A DNA stretch of 64,000 bases from Chloroflexota bacterium (GCA_029262735.1 JAJCYY010000013.1:4108-68107), one strand, 5' to 3'. Shown: positions 20,613 to 42,579, numbered from the stretch's first letter. The notes: generated by a model from the sequence alone, not told the origin. A program made the numbers and translations.

Positions 20613-20629
20613 TGGTTGAATGGTCAGAG

Positions 20630-22249: not shown

Positions 22250-22300
22250 TTCACCGGGGTGCGGAATCCACACACCTGTTAAGACACATGCTCCGAAGAG
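22250..22300 (-). repeat. degenerate copy of tRNA-Leu 3' region (old att remnant)
   Basis: The sequence GGGGTGCGGAATCCACACACCTGTTAAGACACATGCTCCGAAGAGG aligns to the anticodon-arm, variable-arm and T-arm portion of the tRNA-Leu at 42494-42579. Confidence 0.5.
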
Positions 22301-22552
22301 GTATAGCTACGATTCAGCAACATACACTCACATTCAATTCGGATTGAATTGCCTGGGCCGGCGAGCCCCAAAAGTGCGTCCAGGTTCGTGTAGGTTCAAC
22401 TCCGTTGCAGGCTCTCCCATTGCGCGGAGATATAGGATCCATGAACCGAGATCAAAGTGAACCACAACCCCGATACAAGACTCTCTAGAACCCGCCTCCG
22501 GCCCGGTCCGTTGCGCCGAATCCTCAGGCATTCACTGCCAGCTGGGCTCTCT

Positions 22553-24136
22553 TCACCTCAGGATTATTTCGCCAGTGGAATGTACTCGGGCGGCCCGTCG
22601 CCCCGGTGCCAAAACCGAAGGCGGGCCAGACACCACGCTGGTTCCGATCGCAGCTCCTGATCCGATTGACTCTCTATCAGCGTTGGCCTGCTCCAATGAT
22701 CGGCGTCTGACCTTGAACATCATCTCCTCTTCGGAGGCTATAGCCTCCGACTGTCGCAGCGCCTCAATCTTCAGATCGGACTCGTGCATGGCGTCTATCA
22801 GGTCTACAGCTCCCCGAGTGCTTGGCGCGTTCCGAACTGATTCACGCATTGTCTGCTGCAAGCTCTCTTCATCCCTAGCCGCAATTGCAGCCGACTCCCG
22901 CTTCGCACGCGCCTGCGCTTCGGCCTCACGGAGTTCTTGATCGCGCCTCTCTGCCCTGACGATTTCCTGTGCCTGCAGCAAGAACGGCGTCATCCCGTCG
23001 ACATCTTTTGCAAGTGCGATTTCGGATCGACGCTGAGCCTCACTAATAGGCTGCGCATCCAGCGTCTTTAAAATTGTTTCGCCCCTCGCCTGAAAATCCG
23101 CGGTGACAAACTCCGGCGGCCGCAGCTCAGATGGCAGCAGTTCGAACGATCGCCGCATTTCTGCTTCGATCGCGCTCGCACCGGCCTCGCGCTTGGCCTG
23201 GTCCGGGTCGACCACCGGAATTCCGAGATTCCGCAGGAAATCTCTTGCCCCTTCTTCAATGGCCTCAAATGCCCGGCGATGCCGCTCCTTTTCCTTGACC
23301 TGCGCTTCGGCTTCAAGTAAATCAGTGAACTCCTCAACCGCGTCCCGCCGCTCGCTTCTCCGCGCCGCGAAATCCGCACGCGCCAACTGAACCCTTAGAG
23401 ATCGATTGAACTCTTCCAGGCCGGTCAATCCGAAACCTCCCGGGCTGCCGATGGGACTGATACCACGCTGGCGGAACTGATCTCGGAGAAACAGATTGTC
23501 CTGCTCTGCAGGTGACAGATTCTCAAGCCCGGGATTGTTCATTGCGAACTCGGCGCGGGCCTCAGCCTCTTCCTGTGTAAGTGGACCTGCTTCGTCAAAA
23601 CCCAGGAACGTGGGAATATCGGGCATTGGCCCGATGAGTTCAACAGCCTTTTGCAGCAGCGGATCATCCAGGTCTTCTGCTCCTCCATTTATCAGCTCGT
23701 TGAGCCTTTCCGGATCACTGAGAAGCGCCGTCTCCCCTATACCGGCGAGGAGGCTGATTAAGTCTTCGCGGTTCCCCTGCAGAGCCATGTCCACCGCGAG
23801 GGGATTCAGTAAGGTCTGTGAGATTCCTCGTGTTGTAGCATCGTCGAAGATCTTGCCACCAAGAAGACCAGCGAGAGCCTCGACCAGTATCTGGGCTTCA
23901 GGTGATGCGCCCTGCTCGTCCGCTATACCACTGGCCGTACCCGCAACAATCTCTTGCGTTATCGTCCGGCTCAGACTGTCACTCCCGAACAACCGCTGTA
24001 TCGCCTTGCCACCGGGAATTCGGCTAGTAAATTTGAGTCCGAGAAGGAACGCGGGACCGCGACCCAGCGTAGGAACGCCGAGTGGAGAGGCTATGCTCTG
24101 CACCGCGTCCACAAATTCCCCTGTAGGCCCAGGCAA
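22553..24136 (-). CDS. hypothetical coiled-coil-rich protein (527 aa)
   Basis: The long ORF has coding-like composition and charged, E/R/A-rich coiled-coil segments. No recognisable domain was found. Confidence 0.5.
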   Translation of the reverse strand: MPGPTGEFVDAVQSIASPLGVPTLGRGPAFLLGLKFTSRIPGGKAIQRLFGSDSLSRTITQEIVAGTASGIADEQGASPEAQILVEALAGLLGGKIFDDATTRGISQTLLNPLAVDMALQGNREDLISLLAGIGETALLSDPERLNELINGGAEDLDDPLLQKAVELIGPMPDIPTFLGFDEAGPLTQEEAEARAEFAMNNPGLENLSPAEQDNLFLRDQFRQRGISPIGSPGGFGLTGLEEFNRSLRVQLARADFAARRSERRDAVEEFTDLLEAEAQVKEKERHRRAFEAIEEGARDFLRNLGIPVVDPDQAKREAGASAIEAEMRRSFELLPSELRPPEFVTADFQARGETILKTLDAQPISEAQRRSEIALAKDVDGMTPFLLQAQEIVRAERRDQELREAEAQARAKRESAAIAARDEESLQQTMRESVRNAPSTRGAVDLIDAMHESDLKIEALRQSEAIASEEEMMFKVRRRSLEQANADRESIGSGAAIGTSVVSGPPSVLAPGRRAARVHSTGEIILR

Positions 24137-24216
24137 GCTGTCTAGCTGGTCCCGGGTGAAGCCGATGAACGGTGTCGAGAGATTTTCGAGGATGCCACCA
24201 CCGGTGGGATCTGTTT

Positions 24217-24639
24217 TTAATGGCAGGTCTGGAAAAGTCTGCCTGTCCAGAAAGCGAAAAAAAGCCGGTGCCGTGTTTCTCGTCGTATCTCAGCCAGCGA
24301 CCTTGGATCACCTTCCCTTCTGGGGCCGACGAGCTGCGCCAACCTTCTTTCCAATGCCGCGCTCTGGTTCTGTCTGCGTTCCTCAGAACCAGGAACGCCG
24401 ACGGCAGAATCGAGAATGCCTGCCGAATTACCTCCTAAGCTGTCTATCAAAAAAGCGGCAAGGAGGTCCTTTCGTTTATCGGAAGAGACGGTTTCTACGC
24501 CGCGAAGGCTGAGAAAGAATTCCCCGATAAGCGGGTCTTCAGCCCGCAAAATATCCATGAACTCTACCTCGCCGCCTTCTTCCGGCGGGAAGGCCAACAG
24601 TTTTTCCGCCACCTCGTCAATTCTGTCTCTTGTTACCAT
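24217..24639 (-). CDS. hypothetical protein (140 aa), possibly the N-terminal part of the downstream 527-aa gene
   Basis: The ORF ends about 80 nt upstream of the 527-aa ORF on the same strand. Confidence 0.35.
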   Translation of the reverse strand: MVTRDRIDEVAEKLLAFPPEEGGEVEFMDILRAEDPLIGEFFLSLRGVETVSSDKRKDLLAAFLIDSLGGNSAGILDSAVGVPGSEERRQNQSAALERRLAQLVGPRREGDPRSLAEIRRETRHRLFFAFWTGRLFQTCH

Positions 24640-24741
24640 TTCTCACATCCTGATGGCTGCTGGCGTATTGCCGCTTTTTCCATATCTTTTCAACACATAC
24701 CTACACACTGGCCTACCGAAATCTCTTTCGAGGCTGTTTTA

Positions 24742-25108
24742 ATGAAATCCAGGTGGGAAATCGTTGGTTGGGTTCTGATTGTGATCGCCTTTTTTTGCAA
24801 TTTTGTGGACCCTGAACAGAGGCGGGGCGCCGCCGGGGATAGCCTTTGTTGTAGCCGGAATACTCACCGGGTTTCTGCTGGAAGGGATTGCGAGAGTGTT
24901 TCATCGCACCACGATCTTCCGCGTAGTGTTTCGGTATGAAGATGAAAAAGAGCCTGAAGAAGGTCCATCCAATCCCGGCATCACCCCTGATTCAGAAGAC
25001 CCGCGTAAGCTCATCCGAGGCGGCACCACAACAGGCATAAGAAGCGTCGACTCCCGTCGTGCCGATCTAAACTCCAATGACCCTCGTGACCATATAAACC
25101 GGCACTAG
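24742..25108 (+). pseudogene. frameshifted paralogue of the small membrane protein at 25299-25688
   Basis: The N-terminus (MKSRWEIVGWVLIVIAFF, ORF 24742-24939) and C-terminus (GITPDSEDPRK...RSVDSRRADLNSNDPRDHINRH, ORF 24803-25108) lie in different frames. The switch occurs in a GC-rich run near 24825-24840. Confidence 0.55.
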
Positions 25109-25298
25109 TATCCGAGTCAACGGGCAGCCTCAATTTCCTTCTCATATTCGTTTTCGGCTCCGCCCTCTCTTCATCTGACGTCAGTTCGGACACCAGCCGT
25201 TCTGCGATCTCGCTTTCTTCAACTCGCATATCTCAAATCCTGATCCCTAGTGCGTCGCCGTTTTTGAACTGATTCCGAACACATCTATGTAGACTGGC

Positions 25299-25688
25299 TT
25301 GATGCGACGATCTTCAAAAGCACGTTCAGTCAAAATTCGGTGGGAATTCGTTGGATCCATCCTGTTTTTCGGAACACTCACCGCTATTTGGTGGATCTTT
25401 GTCGACGGCGGAGTGGGGAGGATCATGGCTTTCTATAGCGCCGGATTGGTCACAACGCTACTGCTAGCGGGAGTGCTGTCCAAATTCAGTCACGTCAGAC
25501 TCGTCAGTAAAGTGTTTCCGCTCGATGAGGAAGAGCACCCCGACCCGGACCGTTCTGGCATCACGCCTGATTCAATTGATCCTCGGCAGCATATTCAAGG
25601 CGGAATAGCAACGGGCTTAAGAAGCATCGACTCCCGCCGCGCCGATCCAAACTCCAACGATCCTCGTGACTACATCAATCGGCTCTAA
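25299..25688 (+). CDS. small two-TM membrane protein with conserved C-terminal motif
   Basis: The 129-aa product has the C-terminus GITPDSIDPRQHIQGGIATGLRSIDSRRADPNSNDPRDYINRL, almost identical to the upstream paralogue. Confidence 0.55.
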   Translation: MMRRSSKARSVKIRWEFVGSILFFGTLTAIWWIFVDGGVGRIMAFYSAGLVTTLLLAGVLSKFSHVRLVSKVFPLDEEEHPDPDRSGITPDSIDPRQHIQGGIATGLRSIDSRRADPNSNDPRDYINRL

Positions 25689-26156
25689 AATCCAGGGCGC
25701 CGATCACAATTAAGAATCCTTCTCATAATCATTTCCGGCTCCTCTGTTTGTGTCCGTTCAAATGTGACTCCCTTTCGGGATGGCTAACATCGTCGTCTAG
25801 CTCACTCTCACACACACGCCTTTGCCTTTCGACGTTGCAGCCGGATGGGCTCGCCACCGCAAGCTCGTGCGTGGGGATTGTTGGGGCGCCGGATCACTCA
25901 AGACCGCAAACCCTCAAGCCTCTTCAGATTAAAAATACTGGGCATCGGGCACAACAGACATGTCAGGGAGAACAAAGGTGAGTATTGCCGTTGATGGGAG
26001 TCCGCAGGGATCTAACTCCTGGACTCGAAAAAAGTTCACTGGAGACGAGGTCGGGTCTCAAGTAACAGACACGTTCAAGCGTCGTGTCCAACGGTCACTA
26101 GACGCAAGTTTCGGAGCGGCAAATTAAGGTCTCGAAATGATCAACTCGAACGAAAC

Positions 26157-26212
26157 TGGTGGGGAAGGTGGGATTCGAACCCACACGTCTGTTAAGACAC
26201 ATGCTCCTAAGG
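26157..26212 (-). repeat. direct repeat: 3' 56 nt of tRNA-Leu(UAG) (att-like)
   Basis: The sequence TGGTGGGGAAGGTGGGATTCGAACCCACACGTCTGTTAAGACACATGCTCCTAAGG is near-identical to 42494-42549. Confidence 0.8.
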
Positions 26213-26335
26213 TATTTTCAACTGAGTGCTAGGCGTCCAGAACGACAATCCCAAGCGAAACAGCAATAATTATGTGGCCTAACTTCGGAGCGAAAATCGG
26301 CGGAGAGACAGCGCAGCCTGCTGGTGATACGCCCG

Positions 26336-27361
26336 CTACGCAGAGGCCGCTTGATAGAACTTCTTCGCGGCAAGGAACGCGCCGATGAACCCTTTGTTTC
26401 CTATGCCCCAACTGAAGGCACCTGACGCATCGACGGCGAGCAGTTGATTCGCCATACGCTCCGCCAGTGAATCGTACTCGGCAACAGATGCCCCGACATT
26501 TTCCCGAACCTCTGCTGGTGTCGTCGCGCCGATTTTCGCGGATCGTAGCACCTGGATCGATGCGTGGTTCGCAGCCTCCAGAATGCGATGGGGGAAGTCC
26601 GGGCTGTGTGGTAAAAGCGGGCTGATGGCGACCGAGACGAAGACGCCCTCGTCCTTCAGACGTCGCATGATTCGCAGTCGTCGGTCCGGAGTGATGCCGC
26701 CACGTTCGATCTTCCGTTGTTCAGGCAGAAGATCGGAGCTGATGCTGAAGCTGACACCGACACGCCCCTTCAGTCCTAGTGCAACAAGTCGCTCCAACAC
26801 CTGAGGGTCCTCAACCACTTTTGGTGAACGCGTCTGGCACATCAAGAACACGTTCGACTGGTCGAAGACCTCAAGGTTCTCACGAGTCGTCCGCAACGTT
26901 TCCGGCATTGACAAAAAAGGGTCTGTCTTGGGGCTCATGAACACAGATGCCCCCCCAAGCCCCTTTTTTGGACGTCCTGACGGATCGAGCAGCGCCTTTC
27001 GGAGTCTTGCCGTGATTTCCGGTTTGGGAAGAAGCCAGGATCCCCATTTCCTGAACCAGTAACCGTCTCTTCCACCCGGATAATGCCCTGTCATCAAGTC
27101 CGGCACGTAGCAGAAGCTGCAACTCTTGCCCCAGAGGCAACCAATCCACGGATCGAACGTGTAGATGTTCGCCGGCGCATCGGTCGCCTCGAACTCCGGG
27201 AACGCCCGCTCGCCCGAAAGTTGTCCCCAGAAACCTGACTTCTGGTGGTTGAGCACCACCTTCTGACCCGAAGGCAACAGATCATTTTCTGGGTGCGCCG
27301 GACCGCGGAGAATCGGCTCAAATGAACCGGATAACTGTAAGGGTAACTTGAGTTGCGGCAC
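26336..27361 (-). CDS. radical SAM protein, SplB/COG1533 (DNA repair photolyase-like) family
   Basis: The product has a GCLWGKSCSFCYV cysteine cluster (CX5CX2C variant) and a downstream SPKTDPF...PE motif resembling the TDPYQP.E motif of COG1533. It has a GTG start directly abutting the stop of the upstream ParB-like gene (TAAGTG). Confidence 0.6.
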   Translation of the reverse strand: MPQLKLPLQLSGSFEPILRGPAHPENDLLPSGQKVVLNHQKSGFWGQLSGERAFPEFEATDAPANIYTFDPWIGCLWGKSCSFCYVPDLMTGHYPGGRDGYWFRKWGSWLLPKPEITARLRKALLDPSGRPKKGLGGASVFMSPKTDPFLSMPETLRTTRENLEVFDQSNVFLMCQTRSPKVVEDPQVLERLVALGLKGRVGVSFSISSDLLPEQRKIERGGITPDRRLRIMRRLKDEGVFVSVAISPLLPHSPDFPHRILEAANHASIQVLRSAKIGATTPAEVRENVGASVAEYDSLAERMANQLLAVDASGAFSWGIGNKGFIGAFLAAKKFYQAASA

Positions 27362-28117
27362 TTAAGCATCCACACTGTCAGCCGATGATGGCGAGGGAGA
27401 TAACGAATCTCGATCTAGGTAATGCCTGGCAAGCGTCGCAAGAGCGCCGCCCCGGCGAGTCGTGTCGTTCGACCGATGCAAAGCGACATCGAGTGCGAGA
27501 TTCAGCACTCGGTACTCTTCGCTGTGCAGCATAAATCCCATCGAAACCGTTTCGTTCGGAGTTTCTGTCTCTTGTCGAACTTTCTCAGAAGTATCGAAGT
27601 TGGCGATCTCGAGCAGCCTCATGATCTGGCGTTCGCTGTCCGGCAACAGCTCGCAAAGCTCTTCGGTGGAACGCCCATCAAGCAGACCGCAGAGCAGCAC
27701 AGCTCGTCGTTCCGGAATGTCTTTCCCGGAGAGGCGGTTGATTGTAGCCAGGCAAAGCGCCGTTTCCCTATCGTTCAGATTCCAGACAATGCACTGAGCA
27801 GATTCTAGTTGGAGAGCCTGCAGGACCATTAACCGATTTCTTCCATCGATTACTTGGTACTGACCGCGTACTTTAGGGTAGGGACGCACGATGAGTGGTT
27901 CATGGTAACCGGTCAGCTCAATGATCCTCCTCAACTTTGTCAGTCTGTCGGCCGGCATATGATTCGGGCAGCCCACATGAGGAACTAAGCGTTCAAGATT
28001 GATTGAGCGTAGCCTCTCTCTTGAGCATCTTCTCAACCTCCACCAACTTGCCCGATCCCCAACACGCCAATTCTGACTAACGGCTTGCTCAAGAAGCTGG
28101 TACGAGCCTGCTTGCAT
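27362..28117 (-). CDS. ParB-like / DUF262-like nuclease-domain protein
   Basis: The product has the ParB N-terminal domain signature IVRPYPKVRGQYQVIDGRNRLMVLQAL. An alternative start at MPADRL (about 27958) is possible. Confidence 0.6.
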   Translation of the reverse strand: MQAGSYQLLEQAVSQNWRVGDRASWWRLRRCSRERLRSINLERLVPHVGCPNHMPADRLTKLRRIIELTGYHEPLIVRPYPKVRGQYQVIDGRNRLMVLQALQLESAQCIVWNLNDRETALCLATINRLSGKDIPERRAVLLCGLLDGRSTEELCELLPDSERQIMRLLEIANFDTSEKVRQETETPNETVSMGFMLHSEEYRVLNLALDVALHRSNDTTRRGGALATLARHYLDRDSLSPSPSSADSVDA

Positions 28118-29708
28118 TCCTGATATTCAAATCGAGGCTATTCTCTCCGGGTTTCCAGAGCAGATATGCATGGTTGTCCCGAAGCCGGAGTGTTCTTGAA
28201 ACGTCGACTGCCGTGATACCACCGTCGCAGTGTTCAAGAATGTGGGCTTTTAATGTCTGAGGAAACAGGTCGTAGTCTTCGATGAAAAGTAAATCACAGA
28301 CGTCAAGTAACCCGTCCAGGATGCTGGCCCCGTTCGCGGACAACAGGGACTCCTCATTGAATATCCGAGCGGGCGCATAAAAATCGTGCTCACGGCCATC
28401 ATTCGAGTCGCATCCAGTGAGGCGATGCATGCTTCGGTAGAAAGCAGAGAGTGATAGCAGTATGCAAGAACAGCTCGAATCGGCAGCGATTTGGCGGTTT
28501 TGAAATGAAACTGCTCGATCACCGTCACCGAAGCCATAGCAAACTTGACCTAAAAACTTTTCGTTGTGCACGTCAGACTTTTCGAAGGACCTGCGGGCCT
28601 TGGGCTCCATGCACAGATCGGCCCAGGAGAGGCCGGTAATATCGAATTTGCTTAGATTGTTGAGCAGCTTAGAGATGATTCCGATGCGGATACCGTTGGA
28701 AGCTGGCAGCCTGTCGAAAGAATCCAGCCAGCGCCTGTTGTCCTCGGCAAAGAACGTTACGCAGTCAAATTTCTCCTTGATCGATTCGCCGCGAAGGAAT
28801 CGCAGCGGATCCCTCACAACCAGATCCACAGACCAAACACGTACGCGGCAGGAGCCGGATTCAGCAGAGAGTCGAGTCCGGGAGCGTTTGAGCGTCGTGG
28901 AAACCAGGCTCCCGCTACCGGCTCCTATATCCACGATCTCGACGCCTCGATAGGTGTCCTTCTCGGCAGACCACTGTCGTATTACCGGATCAATCACTTT
29001 GTTCACTATGCGCTTGGCTCGCTGCTCAGATCGCGGATCGACACCGCTCGTTGCGAAGTTCGAAAATGCGTCAACTGTCAAGAAACTAGCCGTCCGTGCG
29101 CGATTGGATGCTGCCGGGAAGATCAGCAGCGACAGTTGAGAATTAGGAACCAGCGTTAATTGCCGGTAGTGGTAGAACAGCTCGGCATCTTCGCTGGCAG
29201 CTAGCATGATCAATGGAAGATATCCTGTGCTGTCGGGACTGTTCGGAGCATTCAGCTTTGCCATCAGATAAGCCGGGTTTCTGAGAGTAGTCGTCGCCCC
29301 CGCCTTTCCGTGGCTGTCTGCAGGCGAGGTCAGAATCGCAAAGCACTCGAACGCTAGGACAGTCCTCAATGCAGCTCGGTACTTCATTTCAACGCTCGTC
29401 GACACCACGGCATCCACACTGTTAAGTAATCTGAAGTAGTTGTAGCAGTAGTCAGCTACGTGGGATGAATCGAAGCCACACGCAATATATTCCAGCCAGA
29501 TTCCACGAAGGGACTCCAGACGCTTATCGACTTCATGAATGTGCAAATCCGTCACAGGGGGCCAATACTCTGCCCAGTCGGCCGTATCTATGTGAAATTG
29601 ACCTGATTGATGAACCGTTACGCTCTTGATGAGAGTAGGTTCCTGCAATGCTGATAGAAGTGACCCGCGAAACAAGGATCTTACGGTCTTGTCGGCCATG
29701 CTTGGCAA
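28089..29708 (-). CDS. large protein with class-I SAM-dependent methyltransferase-like core
   Basis: The product has motif I (VEIVDIGAGSGSL) followed by an acidic beta-2 end (VWSVDLV). It is 539 aa and the flanking domains are unassigned. Confidence 0.5.
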   Translation of the reverse strand: MPSMADKTVRSLFRGSLLSALQEPTLIKSVTVHQSGQFHIDTADWAEYWPPVTDLHIHEVDKRLESLRGIWLEYIACGFDSSHVADYCYNYFRLLNSVDAVVSTSVEMKYRAALRTVLAFECFAILTSPADSHGKAGATTTLRNPAYLMAKLNAPNSPDSTGYLPLIMLAASEDAELFYHYRQLTLVPNSQLSLLIFPAASNRARTASFLTVDAFSNFATSGVDPRSEQRAKRIVNKVIDPVIRQWSAEKDTYRGVEIVDIGAGSGSLVSTTLKRSRTRLSAESGSCRVRVWSVDLVVRDPLRFLRGESIKEKFDCVTFFAEDNRRWLDSFDRLPASNGIRIGIISKLLNNLSKFDITGLSWADLCMEPKARRSFEKSDVHNEKFLGQVCYGFGDGDRAVSFQNRQIAADSSCSCILLSLSAFYRSMHRLTGCDSNDGREHDFYAPARIFNEESLLSANGASILDGLLDVCDLLFIEDYDLFPQTLKAHILEHCDGGITAVDVSRTLRLRDNHAYLLWKPGENSLDLNIRNASRLVPAS

Positions 29709-30021
29709 ATGGAACCACCCGAGTGTCCGGTGAAGAAGAGAAATATACGAATCGGGAATCGAGCTCGAGCGCCGGGCTTTTCTTGCCGGTTACGCTCCTC
29801 TCCAACATAGAAACAGGTGACAGCAAGAACAACCGGCATGTCAGGTGAGCTGACTAAACAGCGCCGACAGAGTCTGACGGCAGCGATAAAGAAGATCGCT
29901 CCTAAACAGATGAAAAGAATCGGTGACGAGATCCATTCTCAATCGTCAAACATGCCTATGAAGTGACCAACAAGCGCTAGGCGACAATTTTCAACTCGCC
30001 ACCGAGCCCACTGAACAGCAA

Positions 30022-30075
30022 TGGTGGGGAAGGTGGGATTCGAACCCACACGGATTGCTCCACATGCTCCTAAGG
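30022..30075 (-). repeat. direct repeat: 3' part of tRNA-Leu(UAG) (att-like)
   Basis: The sequence TGGTGGGGAAGGTGGGATTCGAACCCACACG...CATGCTCCTAAGG shares its T-arm and acceptor with the other copies. The variable-arm region diverges. Confidence 0.75.
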
Positions 30076-30671
30076 GATGAAGAGGTTGTTCACAGACATA
30101 CCACAACGTCCTTCCAAGTGCGCGGCGAATGGCAACAGGTCCACAAACGACCACCTGCGTCCAAGAGTGTCGCTCGTTGCTACTGTCAGATTGACTGTCT
30201 GGTTTGCATCGAACCGTCCATGGAATCAGCACACGAGGGCCAAACACACGCGTCTTCGGGTTGACCTTGTATCTTCTTCGCTAACGTCGCCTGGATGGTG
30301 GCGTCGATGTGACCTTCTCCCCGAGATTCGCGCCGAATTAGGTGATAATTTTCAGGGAAGATTCTGAACCTAAGAATGGGAGATCATGTCGTGAAGAGAT
30401 CTCAGGTTACAAACGATCAGCCGTTCTTCTGGCGGATGTCCCGTACCGCTCCTGTCAGGATTGCTGTCATGTGGTTGCCGAAAACCATGAACGACAATTG
30501 TTACTCCAGTTGGCCCGGCTTGTGATGGAAGTTTTGGGACCATGAGCAGCGGCCGACGGCACATGCTTACCTGATATGAGGTGGACTTCGCGCTGGTTCC
30601 CTGAAGCAGCGATTTCGAATCCTTGTGTTTTCAGGTAATGAATACTGGGCCATGTATTTTTAGGAAACTCA

Positions 30672-30974: not shown

Positions 30975-30980
30975 TACTCA

Positions 30981-33684: not shown

Positions 33685-36600
33685 ATGACAGACCTGAATC
33701 AATCTGGATTCGTGACCAACGCTGCCGGTGCGCAGGAAAACGTTGAGCACGATGAAATCGAGTCCCAGCCTGCGAGAACAGATCCTCTGGCAAACCAGTT
33801 GCGGAGCGCGCTGGATGCTCTTCATGACATCAAGGAACTAGAACGGCATCCCCTCGCGTTCCGCCTGGCCGGTAAGTCCGAGAGCACGCCGGAGCTCCGT
33901 GCCCGTCGACTGCAAAGGTGGCTCGTAGACGCCATCAATAAGCTACGACCTGAGAATCCGGGCAGGGCACCCGATTCCCAGGAGAGCCGGTGGCATACGC
34001 TGCTGAACGCGCGGTACATCGAGGGTCTTGAGCCGGAGGTTGTGTGGAGGCGGATCGGGCACGGCCGATCAAGCTTCTTTCGACACGTAAGTAGTGGAAT
34101 TGATGAATTGGCCCGGCAGTTTCGAAACGAGACGTCCGGTGGACCCGACGCCATTCCTCCCCTGATCTCCGGCGGCTACGAATCAGAATTCGTTGGCCGA
34201 GAGCAGGAGTTCTCGGTTCTCAAGGCCCTCTACAACGAGGTCGCTTCAGGAGCCGGCGGCCGGGTCGCAATGATCACCGGTGAGGAAGGGATTGGGAAGA
34301 CCCGACTCGCTCGGGAGCTTGGCAAGTTTGTTGAGAAAGAGGGAGGCTTATTCCTCGAGGGCCGATGGGCCGCGTGGGAGGGCGCTGCTCCGTACGGCGC
34401 TCTTGCCGACAGCCTGAGACAGGGCATTCGTCAGCTTGATCCTGAGGAAGTCGATTTTGCTGTAGGTCCTTACAGGCGTGAACTGACCCGTATCCTGCCA
34501 GAACTGGCTGAAAAGCCAGAGAGCCGAACCGATGAGACGGCACAAGGTGTCGAGGGTGAACAGCTGCGCTTCTACGACGGCGTGTTCTGGCTCGTCCAGA
34601 ACCTGTCGCAGAAACAGCCGCTCGTCCTGCTTCTCGACGACCTCCACCTCGCCCCACAGATGAGTCTGCAGCTACATATCGCGCGACGCCTGCCGGAGCT
34701 GCGACTGCTCATTGTTTACGGATTCAGGGAGAACGAGTTAGCCGAGAAGACTGCCCTTTTTACCGGACGCAACGAGATGGTGCGGAACAGGCTAGTAACC
34801 GACATAGCGTTAATGCCAATCACTGAATCCCAGGTAGAGCAAATCATCGCAAACGCCTTCGAACCAGACATCGCAGCTCATCTGCGAAACCGGATTTTCG
34901 AAATTAATCGAGGCAACCCATTCTTTGTCGAAGAGGTCCTCCGATATCTGCTGCAGAACCAAATGATCCGCAGGTCCGACAGAGGATGGGAAGTCCAAGA
35001 CATCACGCATCTTGGCATTCCCGAAACAGTCAAGCGGCTTGTCCAGGATAGGGTCGACAGGCTGGGCGAAGAAGCAACAAGCGTCCTGCGGCAAGCGTCT
35101 GTGCTGGGAAGAGATTTCAGATTCGATGCTCTGACTGTGATGACCCAATTGCCCGAAGACGAGCTTGTCGAAGTAATTGAAAGGGCCGTCGCTGGCGGGG
35201 TGCTGGTCGACAGTACGCGCGCAGCTGCAGCCGAGGAGTACAGGTTCCGTGATGACCATGTCCGGGAAGCTCTGTACGACGGCATCACTTCACCCAGGCG
35301 GAGGCGATACCATCGGGCGGCTGGCGGCGCACTAGAAGAGACCGACCCGAGCAGACTCCAGGAGCTTGCATTTCACTTCACCACGGGCAGTGATCTGGAA
35401 CGTGGTGCGAAGTACTCATTCGAAGCGGCTGAACAAGCCAACGCAGCGTTCTCGTGGAACAGGGCCATACCACTATACCGTGATGCTCTCGACCTCTGGG
35501 ACGAGCTTGGCGATCACCGGGATGAACGAGCTTTGGCAGCGGAACGCCTCGGAAACGCCTGCTACAAATCAGGCATTCAAGCGCAGCGAGCTACAGGCTA
35601 CTTCCAGCAGTCCCTCGATCTCTACACGGAGCTTGGAAACGAATCCAAAGCGGCGACCATTCTCTCGGAACTCGGCCGCGAGCACATGCACAGCGGCAAC
35701 CTGGCTGCCCAGGACTTGAACTTGGCACTAAAGCACTTCACCGATGCAGAGGCGATCATCTCCCGAGAACCGGAGAGCATCAGGCACGGCATGGTGTACT
35801 GCGGACTTGCGATGGTGCACCTGGACAGGATGGAATTTCGTGACGCGCTCGAATGGGCGCACAGGGCGTTCGAAGTTGGCAAACGCATCAACGCTCCGGC
35901 TGTTATTGCGAACGCCAGCGTCCCTCTCGGCGCTGCGACGGCGATGGAGAGCGTGTCAGACGCTGCGGACATCCTGGAGCGTGGTTGGCGCACTGCCATC
36001 GAATCGGACCTCGGCTTTCAATCTGATCTATCCCGCGCTTATGCAGCGCGCGTCCTAGGAGCGATGCCGAAAGATCCGCGCACCGGCATCGAGTGGGTAA
36101 ACCGAGGTCCGCGATATGAGACTACCTATTCACTGTTCGATATTCCCGCTCACCTGGTTGCGTTCCATGCGCTGGCAGGTGAGTTCGATGAGGCAGAGAA
36201 ACACTTGGACGAGCTTCAGCGTAGGCTGGCAGCGCTCGGTCAGCCCACATTCGGGCCATGGCCGGATGAACTTGGCCTACTGTGGATCCGCACCGGACAG
36301 CTGGAACATGCCGAGGTTCAGCTTGGCAAAGCGCTGGATTGGGCGACAAATAGCGGGAACAGGCTGGTTGAAGCCGGGACGGCAAGGCGTCTTGGCGAGG
36401 TACTGACACACCTGGGTCATTACGAGGTGGCCGAAGAGAAATTCCTGCATTCGCTCAAGCTGAACCGGGCCGGCGGGAATCGGATAGGTGAGTTGGCACT
36501 TTTACCACAACTCGCGCAGCTGTACTGCGAAACCGGACGATTCAACGATGCGGAGAACACTTTGGTGCGTGCCCGCAAAGTTGAATCCGAAATCGATGCG

Positions 36601-36894
36601 CCCGGAGCGCTAAAAGGTGATCTCTTTCTCGCCAATGGAATTGTGAACGCAGGCTTCCGGCGAATAGAAGAGTCCGACAATGCATTCAGGAGCGCCCTGG
36701 ATATTTACCGAGAGTTCGATCGCCCATGGGACGAGGCTCGTGCCTACTATGCACTGGGACTGGTGACAAGAGCGATTTCAGTCAACGAGTCTGATGTCAG
36801 CCGCTCTCGGGAACTAGTAGGGAAAGCGGATTCGCTGTTCTCGTCCATCGGTGCGACATGGTGGGCGGAACGTTGTCGTCAAGGTCATGCATGA
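33685..36894 (+). CDS. STAND-type NTPase with N-terminal sigma-70-region-4-like HTH and C-terminal TPR repeats
   Basis: The 1069-aa product has an HTH-like segment (RWHTLLNARYIEGLEPEVVWRRIGHGRSSFFRHVSSGIDEL). It has Walker A (GEEGIGKTRLAREL) and Walker B (LVLLLDDLH). The C-terminal half contains multiple TPR-like helices. Confidence 0.7.
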   Translation: MTDLNQSGFVTNAAGAQENVEHDEIESQPARTDPLANQLRSALDALHDIKELERHPLAFRLAGKSESTPELRARRLQRWLVDAINKLRPENPGRAPDSQESRWHTLLNARYIEGLEPEVVWRRIGHGRSSFFRHVSSGIDELARQFRNETSGGPDAIPPLISGGYESEFVGREQEFSVLKALYNEVASGAGGRVAMITGEEGIGKTRLARELGKFVEKEGGLFLEGRWAAWEGAAPYGALADSLRQGIRQLDPEEVDFAVGPYRRELTRILPELAEKPESRTDETAQGVEGEQLRFYDGVFWLVQNLSQKQPLVLLLDDLHLAPQMSLQLHIARRLPELRLLIVYGFRENELAEKTALFTGRNEMVRNRLVTDIALMPITESQVEQIIANAFEPDIAAHLRNRIFEINRGNPFFVEEVLRYLLQNQMIRRSDRGWEVQDITHLGIPETVKRLVQDRVDRLGEEATSVLRQASVLGRDFRFDALTVMTQLPEDELVEVIERAVAGGVLVDSTRAAAAEEYRFRDDHVREALYDGITSPRRRRYHRAAGGALEETDPSRLQELAFHFTTGSDLERGAKYSFEAAEQANAAFSWNRAIPLYRDALDLWDELGDHRDERALAAERLGNACYKSGIQAQRATGYFQQSLDLYTELGNESKAATILSELGREHMHSGNLAAQDLNLALKHFTDAEAIISREPESIRHGMVYCGLAMVHLDRMEFRDALEWAHRAFEVGKRINAPAVIANASVPLGAATAMESVSDAADILERGWRTAIESDLGFQSDLSRAYAARVLGAMPKDPRTGIEWVNRGPRYETTYSLFDIPAHLVAFHALAGEFDEAEKHLDELQRRLAALGQPTFGPWPDELGLLWIRTGQLEHAEVQLGKALDWATNSGNRLVEAGTARRLGEVLTHLGHYEVAEEKFLHSLKLNRAGGNRIGELALLPQLAQLYCETGRFNDAENTLVRARKVESEIDAPGALKGDLFLANGIVNAGFRRIEESDNAFRSALDIYREFDRPWDEARAYYALGLVTRAISVNESDVSRSRELVGKADSLFSSIGATWWAERCRQGHA

Positions 36895-36947
36895 AGCTCG
36901 AAATTTCATCTCCAATTCTGACGATCACTGGAGCTAGCGATCGTGAA

Positions 36948-36967
36948 ACTGTCAAACATACTGTCAA
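36948..36967 (+). repeat. direct-repeat motif ACTGTCAA-N4-ACTGTCAA
   Basis: The sequence ACTGTCAAACATACTGTCAA lies between the STAND gene and the MFS gene. The same dyad occurs at 42183-42202 and 42425-42444. Confidence 0.7.
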
Positions 36968-37234
36968 AATAGCGTGATGGAGGGGCAACTCATACCAGCT
37001 AATGAGTTTCGCAATTGAGAAATGACGTTTCATATGTGTGCTGGAAATTAGCGTCACATGCCCCGGCACTATGAAGAGCCCACTCAGACGCGGATCTCTC
37101 ATCTTCTTATAATCTCTCTCGTCGAGAGATTGGACTGAATCAAACCAAGATATCGTGCCATCAATCGGACACGATCGATGAAAAGAAGCCTGGTCATCGG
37201 GACCGTCGCCTGGTGTTCATCAAGGAGCCGGTGA

Positions 37235-38554
37235 GTGGTCAAGACCGTTGCCGGAAGTTCTGATCAGGACACCACATCGACTGCAACCGCGCCATCTGTC
37301 ACTCACCCGTCTGGCCGCGCGGGCTTGTTCCACTCGTTCAGCTATCGCAGCTTCAGGATGCAGTGGATCGCCGATTCCCTGATGAGTTGGTCGAATGAGA
37401 TGGAGAACCTGATCCTGGGCTGGTTCGTCCTGGTGCAGACCGACTCCCCGTTCTTACTCGGCCTGTTCGGTGCACTGAAATTTCTCGGCACGCTAGTAGC
37501 ACCAATCTATGGCGTCATTGCAGACCGAATGGACCGACGCCACATGCTCATCGGCCTGCGTTCGATATTCGCCGTCCTTGCGTTGACTGTCACGACGCTG
37601 GCGCTGACCGGCACACTCGAAGTGTGGCACGTGTTCGTCATCGCCACCCTGACCGGCATGATTCGCGTGGCAGATAACGTAGCCCGGCAGGCGCTCATCG
37701 CCGACATTGTTCCCCGCGAATCCCTGCTGAACGCGTATGGCCTCACTCGCACCACACAGGACTCAGCGAAGATAGCGGGTTCGTTGATTGGCGCTGGACT
37801 ATTCGCCCAATTCGGTCTTGGCCTCGCCTATACAGGCGTAACCGTTCTATATGCCAGTTCCGTGGTGTTCATCGCTGCGGTGAGCATCGTGCGTCGGGCT
37901 GTTCCTTCGCAGCGTGATCCAGTCTTCCGTACGCTCAAGTCGGGAGTCTCATATATGCGCGATTCTCCGACCATCATGGCGGTGATGTTCCTGGCATTCC
38001 TGGTGAACCTCACTGCCTTCCCGCTCTCGAACGGCCTGATGCCAGTTGTAGCACGCGACCTGTTCAACACGGACGAGAACGGGCTGGCGAGGCTGCTGGC
38101 GGCAGTTGCCTCCGGGGCGCTGACGGGGTCTATCGCGATGGCTGCGTTGTCACGCATCGCGCGGCCTGACCGCGTGATGCTGTTTGGGGTAGTGGCGTGG
38201 CATCTGTTCCTGTTGTTGTTCGCCCAGTTTGACACCGCGGGGCCGGCGTTCCCCGTGCTGGCAACGGTGGGATTCGCCAGTTCAGTTTCAATGATCTCGA
38301 TGACCGTACTCCTCATGACCACAGTACAACGAGAGTTTCGCGGTCGCGTAATGGGCGTTCGGATGCTGGCGGTCTATGGGCTACCGATGGGACTGCTGAT
38401 AGGCGGTGCGCTTGCTGAAGTGTTCGGAATCCAGGCGACGATCACGATCTACGGCATTGTCGGCCTGGTGCTCACGGCGCTGTCAGTGGTCGTCTGGCCG
38501 CAGTTATTGCGAAGCGGAGCAGTGATAGGGAGCGATGCTCCGCCCCGCGAGTAA
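37235..38554 (+). CDS. MFS transporter
   Basis: The product has 12 predicted TM segments and an MFS signature (GVIADRMDRRHMLIGL). Confidence 0.8.
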   Translation: MVKTVAGSSDQDTTSTATAPSVTHPSGRAGLFHSFSYRSFRMQWIADSLMSWSNEMENLILGWFVLVQTDSPFLLGLFGALKFLGTLVAPIYGVIADRMDRRHMLIGLRSIFAVLALTVTTLALTGTLEVWHVFVIATLTGMIRVADNVARQALIADIVPRESLLNAYGLTRTTQDSAKIAGSLIGAGLFAQFGLGLAYTGVTVLYASSVVFIAAVSIVRRAVPSQRDPVFRTLKSGVSYMRDSPTIMAVMFLAFLVNLTAFPLSNGLMPVVARDLFNTDENGLARLLAAVASGALTGSIAMAALSRIARPDRVMLFGVVAWHLFLLLFAQFDTAGPAFPVLATVGFASSVSMISMTVLLMTTVQREFRGRVMGVRMLAVYGLPMGLLIGGALAEVFGIQATITIYGIVGLVLTALSVVVWPQLLRSGAVIGSDAPPRE

Positions 38555-38631
38555 GGCCGTCATTGCCCGAACAGTTCCCGACCCACGATGGATTCTGCAA
38601 TCGCGGCATCGGTACCACCTTGCCCGCCCAT

Positions 38632-38661
38632 TCGCCTTCGCCTTCGCCTTCGCCTTCGCCT
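38632..38661. repeat. hexanucleotide SSR (CGCCTT)x5
   Basis: The perfect tandem repeat lies in the convergent intergenic region between the MFS and KAP genes. Confidence 0.9.
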
Positions 38662-38875
38662 GTCAAAGTTACTGTGAAACGCGATCGAGGCCACTATTAT
38701 CCGTAGCATTGCATCTCGAACCGGTGTCTCATGGAGCTCCGAGCACATGCCTCTCGGCCATGACGGCCCTTTGATTCAGCGCATCTTCTGCCCACTACCA
38801 TTACGCTCCGTGGTGACCAGCCGACGGTCGGCACACGACCGATAGTCTGCGAGAGATCGCGAACTTTCGTGTGAC

Positions 38876-41659
38876 CTAGCTTTCGTCCGTTGATACTTCC
38901 GGTTCTTCCAACGGTACCTTCGGATTCGTACCGCTCGTCGGCGACGCCGGGGCGTTGAGAATGGAACTCTCGAACTGTTGTTTCGCCACCTCAGCCGACT
39001 TTTCTCCAAATATGACCACCTTCTGAAGATTCGCCGCCAACACAGGATTGACCAGATCCCGGGAGTGAGAGGCCATATAAGCAGCCACGCGGAGTCTCAG
39101 CAGCAACCTCCTCAACTCTTCTTTTCCATCCCGCAAGATGATTCCATCCACCCGCTTGGGGACAGAAGTGTTGGTCGATTGGAATGTCAACAAGTCACCG
39201 CTTTCGGAAGTCTCCTCGTCCGCGTAAGTTCTGGGGTTGGCCACAATTTGCTCAGAATCTGCGATAGTAACTTTTTCTCTGGAAAGGCCTTTCAATTTTG
39301 AATCCCAAAGTTCGGCTGGTGGATTGGCGAATCCGTCAATAAAGTACTTGGGATCCCAGTTGCTCTCGTTTCCCAGGTAGCTGAAAATCCTGTTCTTATC
39401 GTCGATATCCACATCTGGTGACCCGAGCACCTGCTGCAAGAAGGCATGCGACTCTTGCCTCAATACCAGTGGGATTACCATTGGCAGGCATCCATCATCC
39501 AGAGGTTGTTTGTCATCAGTAGATTTCAGTGCGATGTCGGCGATTCGCAGTATCTCCCGAGGAACACCGCCGGCAAGCACACAAATGCCGTGTCCGACGG
39601 CTTTTGGCAGCACGTTCCGCTTCGGCAGATTTGACCTCAGCCGATCGGAACCGGGATCTGTTCGATCACTCTGTGCTGGACTATACGATTTGCTAGATGC
39701 CGAACCTCTACTTCCTGTTGACGTTGGCTCAGGTTTGATCAACTTCGAAACTACGTCATTGACGCCCCGCCTCAGTGCATCTAACAACTGTGGAAAAGTC
39801 GCTGGCGGTTGTCGTTTAGATTCGGGCACCGGTTTGTGTAGTGATACAGCGATTCGCTCATCCAACAACTTCCACGCCTCTGCAGGTCGTAGGGGACCGA
39901 ACGCAAAGACCTGGTTGAACGAGCTACTAAATTCGTCGCGTCCCCGGAAGGATCCCATTCGGTACGCGCTGGCTGCCTCATCCGAGATGGACATCAGGAA
40001 GTGAACATTTTTGGCCGCAAAGATTCCCTTGATGTCCCTCAATAGCTTTCGAACGTCCTCTTCATCGTCGATTTTATCGAGCTCATCGATGCCGATCACG
40101 ACATTGCCAAGCATCGCTTCCTGCGCCCGTTCGGCAAGATCCGCGAACTCTTTCACGAGCGAAGTTACCGTATACGGTCTTTCCACGAGCTCCTTGCTGC
40201 GGGAAAACTTCACTAGCCCCGTTAACCATTTGCCGCCCTCGGCCCCGAACTCTGAACTGCGTCGTTCGCTGCTGGAGTAGCGAACCCACTCTTTTGCACG
40301 CTCAGCGCGCCTTTTCACGACACGGAGTTGCTGGTTTCTCTGTTTCTGGTTTGTGAAATTCTTGGCAGGAATTATCAACGAAAGAAACGGGATGAATGCC
40401 AGCGCGCCTCCAGAGACTGCCGCCAATATCGAAAAGGAGTTGTAGAGAGTCATTGGCGGAGCCTGATCGCCCTCGCGGACCAGAAAGGACCAATCATGGG
40501 ACGCGGTGTACCGAATCGCGACTACCAATCCGACCCAAACTACCACTGAAAATGATGTCACCCACAACGAATCTACATTGTCGAAATTAGTCCTGATTGA
40601 GGCGCCCCGCCCTTCATATCTTGAACTCCGGGCTAAACGTCTGAGATATGACCACGTCCTTGATGGCGTATTCCTGAGGAGGGAAGGAAAACCGTACTTT
40701 AGCAACCAGTTTTCTGATCTTGATGTGTCGGATTCTGATTGTTTAGCTTGCGGCGTGCCGGAGTCTGGTAGTTCAGCTTGTGCCCTGTCGGACCCTGACT
40801 GTTCAGAAGGCGAATTGTCGGACTTCTCGCTCGCCTCTGTACCCGTGGTGACCCATTTCCATGCGAGCTGCGAAGCTACTAAGCCTGACAAAAGTGTCGC
40901 AGCCACCAGGATCAGGAATTTTAGTATCTTGCTGATGTCTGCTTGCTGGTTCGAGAACTCCCAGCTCAGTGCCGCACCCATTGCGATCAACAACAGGATG
41001 GTGACTCCGAGCAACGCATCAAAACCTACCTGTGAATACCTGATGACTGCGAACCGGTTTGGCTGCCCGTCAAATTCGGATGCGTCCAGATCCGTGGCCC
41101 CTAGTGCTACGCGCTGCCTGTTTGACCGGCGTCCCATGTACTTAATTGCTTTGCCGGTCTTTGCAACCACCGCGTCAGCCAGCGTGTATATGAGGGTTTC
41201 CAGGAATGGCAGAGCCTTGTATTCGCTGGGAACCGGAGCCCAGATTCCGACTCCGTAGTCCTCTTTGCCGGATTCAGAATGATTTCGTTGCTGGTCATCA
41301 TCGCGGGATTTCTCGTTGCTGTTTGGCCCGTCCTTTCTATTATCGTTGTTCGAATCCGACAAGTTCACTGGTTGCTGGGCATTCGCCAGATCAACGGCCT
41401 GCTGTATGAACCAGGTCTTTCCGGCTCCTCTTGGTCCAGAAACTCCGAACGAGCCTCCTTCGATTTCCAGCAACGCATCCGGGCTCTGTGATCTGTCCCA
41501 TTTCTCGAAGCGATCAGAACGAAACGAGGTGAAGACATCCGCGTTTTTGATCTTCTTCCACGTCCGGTTGTTTTCCTGCCCGCCGTCTTCCGTGGTTTTT
41601 TCGTTATCAGGGGATGTGTTTTCCACCTCGGGACCCGTTGCACCATTAGGAATTGACAT
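38876..41659 (-). CDS. KAP-family P-loop NTPase
   Basis: The 927-aa product has Walker A (GPRGAGKT) and Walker B (VVIGIDELDKI). Four predicted TM helices are inserted between them, which is the KAP hallmark. The local sequence is AT-richer. Confidence 0.7.
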   Translation of the reverse strand: MSIPNGATGPEVENTSPDNEKTTEDGGQENNRTWKKIKNADVFTSFRSDRFEKWDRSQSPDALLEIEGGSFGVSGPRGAGKTWFIQQAVDLANAQQPVNLSDSNNDNRKDGPNSNEKSRDDDQQRNHSESGKEDYGVGIWAPVPSEYKALPFLETLIYTLADAVVAKTGKAIKYMGRRSNRQRVALGATDLDASEFDGQPNRFAVIRYSQVGFDALLGVTILLLIAMGAALSWEFSNQQADISKILKFLILVAATLLSGLVASQLAWKWVTTGTEASEKSDNSPSEQSGSDRAQAELPDSGTPQAKQSESDTSRSENWLLKYGFPSLLRNTPSRTWSYLRRLARSSRYEGRGASIRTNFDNVDSLWVTSFSVVVWVGLVVAIRYTASHDWSFLVREGDQAPPMTLYNSFSILAAVSGGALAFIPFLSLIIPAKNFTNQKQRNQQLRVVKRRAERAKEWVRYSSSERRSSEFGAEGGKWLTGLVKFSRSKELVERPYTVTSLVKEFADLAERAQEAMLGNVVIGIDELDKIDDEEDVRKLLRDIKGIFAAKNVHFLMSISDEAASAYRMGSFRGRDEFSSSFNQVFAFGPLRPAEAWKLLDERIAVSLHKPVPESKRQPPATFPQLLDALRRGVNDVVSKLIKPEPTSTGSRGSASSKSYSPAQSDRTDPGSDRLRSNLPKRNVLPKAVGHGICVLAGGVPREILRIADIALKSTDDKQPLDDGCLPMVIPLVLRQESHAFLQQVLGSPDVDIDDKNRIFSYLGNESNWDPKYFIDGFANPPAELWDSKLKGLSREKVTIADSEQIVANPRTYADEETSESGDLLTFQSTNTSVPKRVDGIILRDGKEELRRLLLRLRVAAYMASHSRDLVNPVLAANLQKVVIFGEKSAEVAKQQFESSILNAPASPTSGTNPKVPLEEPEVSTDES

Positions 41660-42182
41660 CGGCTGTGCCTTCTTTTTACATACGGCCCTCTAGCGCGAGG
41701 ACAACGCTGAGTTCACTGTGCGATCATATTCCAGGTTGGATCCTACGGATTGGAGAGAGTGACCGCCCGCTAGACGAATCAGAATCATTCCCATCGAATC
41801 CGCTGAGCGGATGGAACGGCATGATCGTAGTGAAACCGTCGATCCTAGTGGATTGTGTACAAACTTATCGTTGTTCACAACACATTGGCTATCCTAAAAG
41901 ACTCTCATCAGGAAGTCGAAACAACGATTCAGATCATGACTCTCCCATTGACCCACCGAGGTCGAGACCCTGGAACAAGGCCACAAGATTCTGGGAGGTC
42001 AGAGTCTGCTGCCGTTCTACGATTATCCCGTTCGTTGCAGGATCCCAACTTCCGAGTCGAACTCCGACCCTCGAGACACAATTGCCGATCAACTTTGTCT
42101 GTGTCGGTCAATGAATTCAACGTGCTCCTGGGAAGCGCCGAGAGCGGAACCCCTATGAATCGTGCCAATACCGATAACGTTG

Positions 42183-42202
42183 ACTGTCAACACTACTGTC
42201 AA
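42183..42202 (+). repeat. direct-repeat motif ACTGTCAA-N4-ACTGTCAA
   Basis: The sequence ACTGTCAACACTACTGTCAA lies about 290 bp from the tRNA-Leu 3' end. The left copy is embedded in the palindrome TTGACTGTCAA. Confidence 0.7.
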
Positions 42203-42424
42203 AAAACCTCATTTCCCGTGGACGGGCGATTGTTGCATCTCGATATCAGCTTCTGAAGGCTGCTTAGCACATGCTTCCCGATCTTGACAGCGATTGAAGT
42301 GGGGTTCTGGTCTGAACTTTCATCTCCGACAGGCCTAACAGTCCTTGAAATTGACCTGATCGGTGGAACTGAGGTAATACGAACTCCGAATCGAGATGCG
42401 CCCGTATTCATAGCCACAGGTGAA

Positions 42425-42444
42425 ACTGTCAAAACTACTGTCAA
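42425..42444 (+). repeat. direct-repeat motif ACTGTCAA-N4-ACTGTCAA
   Basis: The sequence ACTGTCAAAACTACTGTCAA lies about 50 bp from the tRNA-Leu 3' end. Confidence 0.7.
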
Positions 42445-42493
42445 TCCGTGTTTCGGACGACCTCATGAATTCCTCGAAACAGCTAAGTTGAAC

Positions 42494-42579
42494 TGGTGGG
42501 GAAGGGGGGATTCGAACCCCCACGTCTGTTAAGACACATGCTCCTAAGGCATGCGCGTCTGCCATTTCGCCACTTCCCC
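42494..42579 (-). tRNA. tRNA-Leu (anticodon UAG), type II with long variable arm
   Basis: The minus-strand sequence is GGGGAAGTGGCGAAATGGCAGACGCGCATGCCTTAGGAGCATGTGTCTTAACAGACGTGGGGGTTCGAATCCCCC(C)CTTCCCCACCA. It has an anticodon stem CATGC/GCATG with loop CUUAGGA, a variable arm GTCT-TAAC-AGAC and an encoded CCA. There is one extra C in the T-stem relative to the repeat copies. Confidence 0.85.

Follow-up and report, generated by a model that had tools for sequence, protein, structure and literature searches.

Three integrase-less islands bounded by tRNA-Leu(UAG) 3'-end repeats in a Dehalococcoidia genome

The 64-kb stretch of Chloroflexota bacterium DNA analysed here (GCA_029262735.1 JAJCYY010000013.1:4108-68107; hereafter the window) contained an intact tRNA-Leu(UAG) gene and three displaced copies of its 3' part, which delimited three islands, termed A, B and C. 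The array probably arose by tandem accretion, in which three islands entered the same tRNA gene (tDNA) through successive site-specific integrations; tRNA-Leu(UAG) was used at least three times as an attachment (att) site. The islands are now integrase-less and resemble cis-mobilizable elements or fossils. Successive integration into the tRNA 3' end had been proposed in an earlier note made from the nucleotides alone (the sequence-only reading). It was supported here by the alleles of the repeats, by a synteny break at the tRNA and by two of the comparison loci (numbered with the prefix L), namely L091 and L132.

The tRNA-Leu(UAG) repeats and their alleles

Only one tRNA was detected in the window, a tRNA-Leu(UAG) at 42494-42579 on the minus strand (ARAGORN; Rfam 60.5 bits), where the sequence-only reading had placed it. 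Its 3' 56 nucleotides (nt), 42494-42549, recurred on the minus strand as f30 (30022-30075, 54 nt) and as f26 (26157-26212, 56 nt, 54/56 identical to the intact tRNA, blastn-short E 8e-23). A decayed remnant, f22, was positioned at 22256-22300 on the same strand, with 34/43 matches including an exact 19-nt core (E 1.6e-5) and with the T-loop/acceptor part lost. Copies of 50-56 nt at the first two positions and a degenerate one at about 22250-22300 had been claimed previously, and all three held. No shuffle of the window out of 100 gave two or more matches. The segments between the copies measured 12,418 nt (A), 3,809 nt (B) and 3,856 nt (C), in agreement with the earlier estimates of about 12.4, 3.9 and 3.9 kb.

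All displaced copies were oriented as the tRNA, and the repeat unit spanned the anticodon loop to the CCA. The left edge of every copy fell at the anticodon stem/loop boundary, 3-4 nt ahead of the anticodon loop; f30 and f26 ended at CCA like the tRNA itself, and the 3' end of f22 was lost. The replicon therefore held an intact tRNA together with displaced, same-orientation fragments of that tRNA, whose boundary lay at a known crossover subsite, the anticodon loop. Three crossover subsites are recognized in tDNAs, the anticodon loop, the T loop and the T/acceptor junction (Islander; Hudson, Lau and Williams 2015, PMC4383910). f30 was built of a 15-nt and a 30-nt block, both exact to the native allele described below, which flanked a divergent variable arm 2 nt shorter than the native one. 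This arm could still form a hairpin, with GGAGCAATCC in place of GTCTTAACAGAC.

The T-stem of the intact tRNA read GGGGG/CCCCC, and that of f26 and f30 GTGGG/CCCAC. The difference comprised two substitutions that made one compensatory pair (G-C versus U-A). The sequence-only reading had counted an extra C/G in the intact tRNA and considered a homopolymer sequencing error; no additional base was present, and the T-stem difference was a compensatory difference between alleles. f26 was identical over 56/56 nt to the last 56 nt of tRNA-Leu in three relatives of the host (L002, L003 and L004). The G-C pair allele of the intact tRNA occurred in none of the four sister loci (L002-L005) and in none of 35 metagenome loci with tRNA-Leu(UAG) that were recovered in a scan with the tRNA 3' half. 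The f30 variable arm was likewise absent from the 35 loci, and no donor of the GGGGG/CCCCC or GAGCAATCC alleles was found among them. Natural allele variation among the 35 tRNA loci affected the variable arm and the second T-stem pair. When the tRNA 5' half was fused to f26 or to f30, ARAGORN still called the hybrid tRNA-Leu(tag), indicating that f26 and f30 descend from functional alleles and are not chance look-alikes.

Because f26 is identical to the tRNA-Leu of the sisters, the working tRNA bears a foreign 3' half, as expected after integration. Judged from these sequences, f26 is the displaced native 3' half of the clade, and the 3' half now in use is foreign but structure-preserving. A foreign 3' half in the target tRNA is a signature of integration into a tDNA (PMC4383910). 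The native and foreign alleles document, within the array itself, the stage at which each copy was displaced, which makes the locus a teaching case and a test bed for trans-mobilisation.

FtsZ (43912-45258) placed the host among Dehalococcoidia known solely from metagenome-assembled genomes; some of the remoter matches were labelled SAR202 cluster. L002-L005 represented four species-level relatives with FtsZ 78-85% identical, and FtsZ adjoined tRNA-Leu(UAG) in all of them. The FtsZ side of the window (44-53 kb) was syntenic with the four loci from about 53 kb to the tRNA, and the synteny ended exactly there (tblastx). On the 3' side of the tRNA the gene content was different in each relative: FHA, PP2C and protein kinase genes in L002, a 1,429-aa (amino acid) protein in L003, a 2,142-aa protein with fn3, subtilase and dockerin domains in L004, and RraA with a B12 ABC transporter matching window 6.4-10.3 kb in L005.

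Presence and absence of the islands were also polymorphic, with the breakpoint at the tDNA. L091 (GCA_025450675.1), found through a 71%-identical homologue of a 539-aa protein of island B, had the order SGL gene (82% nt identity), intact native tRNA-Leu and then island B directly (78% nt identity to 30079-27427); island A was absent. L132, a Logan contig of 3,885 nt from SRR29547200, was collinear with window 30049-26183 at 79.8% identity. It started within the T-arm block and ended within the distal fragment, so that island B with both repeats was present in a third lineage. The L091 and L132 versions of island B were about 80% identical to each other. In the metagenome scan, 34 of the 35 loci had whole tRNA genes and one had an orphan fragment (L114); there were no arrays. 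The possibility that the repeats belong to a dispersed repeat family, which the sequence-only reading had asked to have checked, was not borne out. Its other check, presence or absence in relatives, was answered in part: A was missing from L091 and B was present in L132, but no full empty site was found.

Successive integration and its alternatives

Islands of this kind form by an established mechanism. Each incoming element would bring an attP site containing a duplicate of the 3' part of the tRNA, anticodon loop through CCA. Recombination would rebuild the working tRNA from the copy of the element and move the former 3' part to the far end of the element, and repetition would give the order tRNA - A (12.4 kb) - f30 - B (3.8 kb) - f26 - C (3.9 kb) - f22. 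Given how the islands are arranged and how well each repeat is preserved, the outer one being decayed, we infer that C is the oldest island and A the newest. A tyrosine integrase is the probable recombinase, and its site of action the anticodon-loop subsite, which fits best because all copies begin there. To move again, the islands would depend on an integrase provided in trans or by a neighbour newly added to the array.

No integrase, resolvase, recombinase or transposase domain was found by Pfam in the long open reading frames (ORFs) of 16.4-46.8 kb. In 22.0-42.5 kb, including the 0.8 kb beside the tRNA, six-frame stop-to-stop stretches of at least 40 aa outside Pfam-assigned genes gave no recombinase, and relaxed Pfam thresholds gave no recombinase sub-domains. 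The ORFs scanned in the rest of the window, which covered most of it, also contained no recombinase by Pfam. These searches of ORFs and six-frame stretches upheld the earlier statement that 22-42.6 kb has no recombinase ORF. No relaxase or type IV secretion domains were found among the island ORFs. PADLOC and PHROGs, applied to the island proteins, returned only ParB-domain and radical-SAM matches and no known defence system or phage module. The PHROG matches were thus limited to a ParB-like and a radical SAM protein, and no IMG/VR relatives were found, which gave no sign of a prophage or phage satellite. An IMG/VR scan with the T-arm/acceptor 25-mer recovered phage-encoded tRNA genes only and no attP. 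Searches of 133 related loci, of IMG/VR and of the surroundings of the 539-aa family found no relative of A, B or C with an integrase; the one link was an integrase fragment next to the gene cassette that B shares with L085 and L086.

Three known systems were compared with the array. In the Islander collection of 3,919 islands, tandem arrays at one tDNA comprised 125 with at least two islands and 4 with at least three (PMC4383910). As here, a regenerated tRNA gene and a displaced, direct-orientation 3' fragment starting at the anticodon loop mark the ends of such islands; in contrast to the present array, in an uncultured Dehalococcoidia host, each has an integrase. Islander demands an integrase gene (PF00589, not of the Xer or integron type) in every island of an array (PMC4383910). 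No PF00589 integrase was found in A, B or C, and Islander would discard this locus because none of its three islands has an integrase. Arrays of this type escape any pipeline that, like Islander, makes an integrase a requirement.

The second comparison was with cis-mobilizable elements (CIMEs) and tandem accretion as described for ICESt1/ICESt3 of Streptococcus thermophilus (Pavlovic et al. 2004, as cited in PMC3146451). CIMEs have attL/attR-type flanks, lack integration and transfer genes and lie in tandem at one attachment site, as was seen here. Each of A, B and C lay between two copies of the tRNA 3' part, those of B being intact in two genomes, and recombination or conjugation modules were absent from the island ORFs. 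No related integrative conjugative or integrative mobilizable element with an integrase was found. The target here is the 3' half of a tRNA gene; that of ICESt1/ICESt3 is the 3' end of fda.

The tandem ssrA islands of Dehalococcoides (McMurdie et al. 2011) belong to the same class, lying in tandem 3' of one small-RNA gene whose 3' end is repeated directly at the border of each island. Fifteen of them lack the integration module and were suggested as possible CIMEs or fixed relics; the direct repeat is 20 bp and a DsiA/DsiB serine-recombinase pair is involved (PMC3146451). The array differed in its target (tRNA-Leu(UAG)), in the length of its repeat (54-56 nt), in the absence of an integration module and in cargo other than reductive dehalogenases. 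With a tRNA-Leu target and no serine recombinase domains, it is not one of the ssrA islands.

Several results weighed against successive integration as set out above. No integrase adjoined tRNA-Leu in the four relative genomes (Pfam), no integrase-like neighbours were seen at 13 representative metagenome loci inspected by eye, and no integrase targeting this tRNA was found within the window or in IMG/VR. A search via DUF1800 orthologues recovered no completely empty site. The DUF1800-DUF1501-NHL module that adjoins f22 had differing contexts in the closest relatives, and the outer boundary was marked by the degenerate repeat alone. The boundary at 22.3 kb is less secure than the inner ones, since no full empty site was found. 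The junction A|f30|B had no independent confirmation: Logan contigs from the same run (SRR15505512) broke at the 30-nt exact repeat, so the order of the array depends on the original assembler. Finally, the tRNA beside island B in L091 was native and did not match f30, contrary to expectation for a canonical anticodon-loop crossover. This mismatch calls for either independent B-type integrations or a non-canonical crossover.

Under the first option, with an anticodon-loop crossover, the attP of A would have given the whole present 3' half, and the tRNA before A would have been f30-type. Because the tRNA beside B in L091 is native, B-type elements would then have entered two lineages separately. 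Under the second option, the crossover would have fallen between the variable arm and the T-stem, joining a native pre-A tRNA to a single foreign attP in which the alternative variable arm and the G-C pair were combined. One such event would account for precisely the two hybrid copies observed, but the crossover would be non-canonical and would have 4 nt of identity only.

Tandem accretion leaves the present state of the islands to be considered. That they, B especially and perhaps A, are still recombination-competent and are moved by an integrase elsewhere in the genome or in a transient neighbour, as true mobilizable elements, is possible but on balance doubtful; we are equally hesitant about mobilisation in trans or in cis at the present day. 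The distal repeat of B was undecayed, matching the native allele at 56/56 nt in the window and at all 30 visible nt in L132 (3856-3885). Between these two loci, identity was 75-89% in the non-coding DNA next to it and about 80% in the coding DNA, whereas f22 had decayed to 79%. Three copies of B, mutually about 80% identical, lay at the same tDNA, and both of the fully readable ones had no integrase. If the crossover was at the anticodon loop, the f30-type 3' half in the window and the native one in L091 would imply independent B-type integrations. Island A was present or absent between relatives.

The perfect state of the distal repeat of B, a presumably non-functional copy, could be due to gene conversion, to an independent integration in recent times or to att sites being under selection. 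Conservation of the repeat hints at constraint on the repeats or recent displacement, but the statistics for 30-56 nt are weak (p ~0.001-0.03), which also counts against present mobility. The identity of B (78-80%) was close to that of the flanking SGL gene (82%) and fits simple vertical inheritance. No candidate integrase, excised circle or empty-site junction was observed. Motifs common to the arms were tried as arm-type sites and rejected: 9-10-mers common to the island arms occurred about as often as expected by chance, and the motifs that the two arms of B have in common (GTTGAAAAT, CGCCTAGCRCT) did not exceed chance for arms of 160 nt.

A more specific proposal, which we consider unlikely, treats island B as a mobile unit of minimal size that has no integrase of its own. 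Its three genes and two att repeats, the latter kept perfect amid about 20% divergence, would have inserted into this tRNA-Leu on separate occasions in several Dehalococcoidia lineages through an integrase acting in trans, with an undescribed DNA-modification or defence cassette as cargo.

Arrival of the 20 kb in a single step, as a composite element with internal tRNA fragments assembled in another host, is improbable. Tandem arrays can travel as a unit by accretion and cis-mobilisation according to literature cited in PMC3146451, and no integrase is present by which the events could be dated separately. However, L091 had B without A at the same site, f26 matched the native allele of this clade and not a foreign one, and A, B and C differed in guanine-plus-cytosine (GC) content. 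In addition, the paired motif ACTGTCAA-N4-ACTGTCAA was confined to A and the tRNA/FtsZ side, with none in B or C.

Slightly less probable again is an assembly artefact, in which contigs of coexisting strains, or an excised circular B, were threaded together at the 30-nt exact repeat and no chromosome carries tRNA-A-B-C. The window came from a metagenome-type assembly, the k=31 Logan contigs of the same run ended at the repeats (L001 = 20375-26186, L082 = 26183-30051) and no independent contig spanned A|f30|B. However, repeats of 54-56 nt are shorter than ordinary reads and are resolved by assemblers with larger k, and the unique variable arm of f30 joined A on one side and the proximal arm of B on the other. 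L091, a separate assembly, had B integrated beside the tRNA, and L001 independently linked C, f22 and the DUF1800 gene.

Origin of the repeats without site-specific recombination, either because the tRNA was duplicated locally and the 5' halves were then lost or by homologous recombination, is very improbable, for beyond the lack of a recombinase gene nothing specific spoke for it, whereas all fragments started at the same anticodon-loop position with no trace of a 5' half, the DNA between the copies was unrelated among the segments, the copies bore different functional alleles and synteny broke exactly at the tRNA.

Tandem accretion at the tRNA does not overturn current understanding. The footprint is clear but ordinary, and is unusual only in that all blocks lack recombinase genes. 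It documents the build-up of accessory DNA at a tDNA hot spot in an uncultured marine lineage about which little is known.

Content of the islands

The GC content of the islands was 0.549 (C), 0.537 (B) and 0.558 (A), compared with 0.586 and 0.575 in the flanks. GC at third codon positions was 0.61 in island genes and 0.68 in flank genes (Mann-Whitney p = 0.007). Within A the composition was uneven, with 0.574 at 30.1-38.7 kb and 0.523 at 38.7-42.5 kb. The earlier description of the segments as AT-richer than the flanks was thus correct in direction, but the difference was modest and uneven, 30.1-38.7 kb being core-like. The cargo named in the same reading was recognized by Pfam for the KAP, STAND, SPFH, ParB and radical SAM proteins; its methyltransferase (MTase) was only MTase-like and had no Pfam match. 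Rfam detected no other RNA family within the islands.

Island B (26213-30021, 3.8 kb, between f30 and f26) contained three genes on the minus strand: a gene for an MTase-like protein of 539 aa, resembling enzymes dependent on S-adenosylmethionine (SAM), at 28089-29708; a gene for a ParB_N-domain protein at 27362-28117; and a gene for an SPL-like radical SAM protein at 26336-27361. The latter two were assigned by Pfam, NCBIfam and PHROGs, and the radical SAM protein was nearest to the SPL-like families PA0069, Rv2578c and 'mobile pair B' (NCBIfam). Pfam gave no match for the 539-aa protein; its assignment came from a DxGxGxG motif, invariant in its family, and from weak fold matches. Its AlphaFold2 model had a predicted local distance difference test score (pLDDT) of 81 and weakly matched class I SAM methyltransferases, GRAS and MidA. 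Sequence and fold searches of the PDB yielded only weak class I methyltransferase-like matches. The family had 32 matches in a word-indexed search and 405 cluster representatives (E <=1e-3) among 1.84 billion. IMG/VR scans with this family and with a 527-aa protein of island C found no relatives.

The cassette of a ~530-aa MTase-like protein, an SPL-like radical SAM protein and a ParB_N protein was conserved in the window (26336-29708), L084, L085-L087, L088-L090, L091 and L132. Elsewhere it included a further protein of about 135 aa, and the order in the window differed, ParB lying ahead of the radical SAM gene. In L085 and L086 the cassette stood beside an integrase fragment and a VapBC pair. 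It was absent from PADLOC, and no description of it was found in a literature search. The locus flags this rare, conserved cassette of three to four genes, whose function is uncharacterised, as mobile cargo.

Island A (30076-42493, 12.4 kb, between the tRNA and f30) encoded a KAP-family NTPase (38876-41659, minus), an MFS transporter (37235-38554, plus), a STAND protein of AAA_16+TPR type (33685-36894, plus) and an SPFH/Band-7 protein (30981-33020, minus), all assigned by Pfam, together with small ORFs. Distant MFS and STAND paralogues were the sole matches of the island A and C proteins in the 133 loci (tblastn).

The direct repeat ACTGTCAA-N4-ACTGTCAA occurred on the plus strand at 30182-30201, 36948-36967, 38659-38678, 42183-42202, 42425-42444 and 45427-45446. 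These six sites at <=3 mismatches compared with 0.43 expected, and six were reached in 0/100 shuffles. The three perfect sites were all intergenic in island A, and sites lay close to both ends of A. No exact match was found across the 133 loci (~2 Mb). The motif may serve as an operator for a regulator encoded by the island, for example the STAND protein. On the minus strand ACTGTCAA reads TTGACAGT, which is like a -35 box. A perfect hexanucleotide microsatellite, (TTCGCC) x 5.2, was present at 38631-38661 between the MFS and KAP genes and overlapped one of the motif sites.

Island C (22301-26156, 3.9 kb, between f26 and f22) encoded the coiled-coil-rich ORFan of 527 aa (22553-24136, minus), an ORF of 140 aa (24217-24639, minus) and two adjacent, paralogous small proteins (24803-25108 and 25299-25688, plus; 49% identity, E 5e-31). 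No protein of island C matched Pfam, PHROGs, PADLOC or NCBIfam. The small paralogues share the C-terminal motif SxDSRRADxNSNDPRDxINR and matched no known family.

Flanking DNA and related loci

The first ~58 nt 3' of the tRNA (42435-42493, the proximal end of island A) were homologous to ~12635-12695 of L004, with GTTCAAC..GTTTCGA in common and CGGATTGACAGT at equal distance. This likeness may reflect either a native trailer within the att identity block or a past visit of an A-like element to L004.

In L005, 9281-13242 was collinear with window 10281-6435, the B12 ABC transporter following an RraA-like gene. The lineage-specific region may therefore be as long as 32 kb (10.3-42.5 kb) and take in cobUST, imuB-dnaE2 and the DUF1800 triad, or L005 may be rearranged.

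Two metagenome loci had insertions or fragments of their own. The orphan tRNA-Leu 3' fragment of L114 (7390-7445) had no 5' half and a U-G pair in the T-stem, and a gene for an IS6/IS240-like transposase lay ~2.7 kb upstream. Compared with L115, L121 had an insertion of about 1 kb encoding a DNA methyltransferase (SPPY motif) between tRNA-Leu(UAG) and a 2-hydroxyacid dehydrogenase gene; no integrase was visible in this insertion, and in L115 the dehydrogenase gene directly followed the tRNA.

DUF1800-DUF1501-NHL (18350-22014) was a tight three-gene module with 75-76% nt identity to L130 and L131, and its neighbours differed in every genome examined. In L130 the module stood beside IS110- and IS240-type transposases and a second DUF1800 copy. 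Further from the tRNA, a cluster at 12899-18080 comprised a DnaE2-type polymerase (12899-16459), a 119-aa ORF with no Pfam match and a Y-family IMS/ImuB-like gene (16818-18080), and looks like an imuA-imuB-dnaE2 mutagenesis cassette. A cobalamin riboswitch (6460-6663, plus, 110 bits) was located upstream of a transporter with FecCD, binding-protein and ATPase genes, which was followed by cobU, cobS and cobT (6794-12713).

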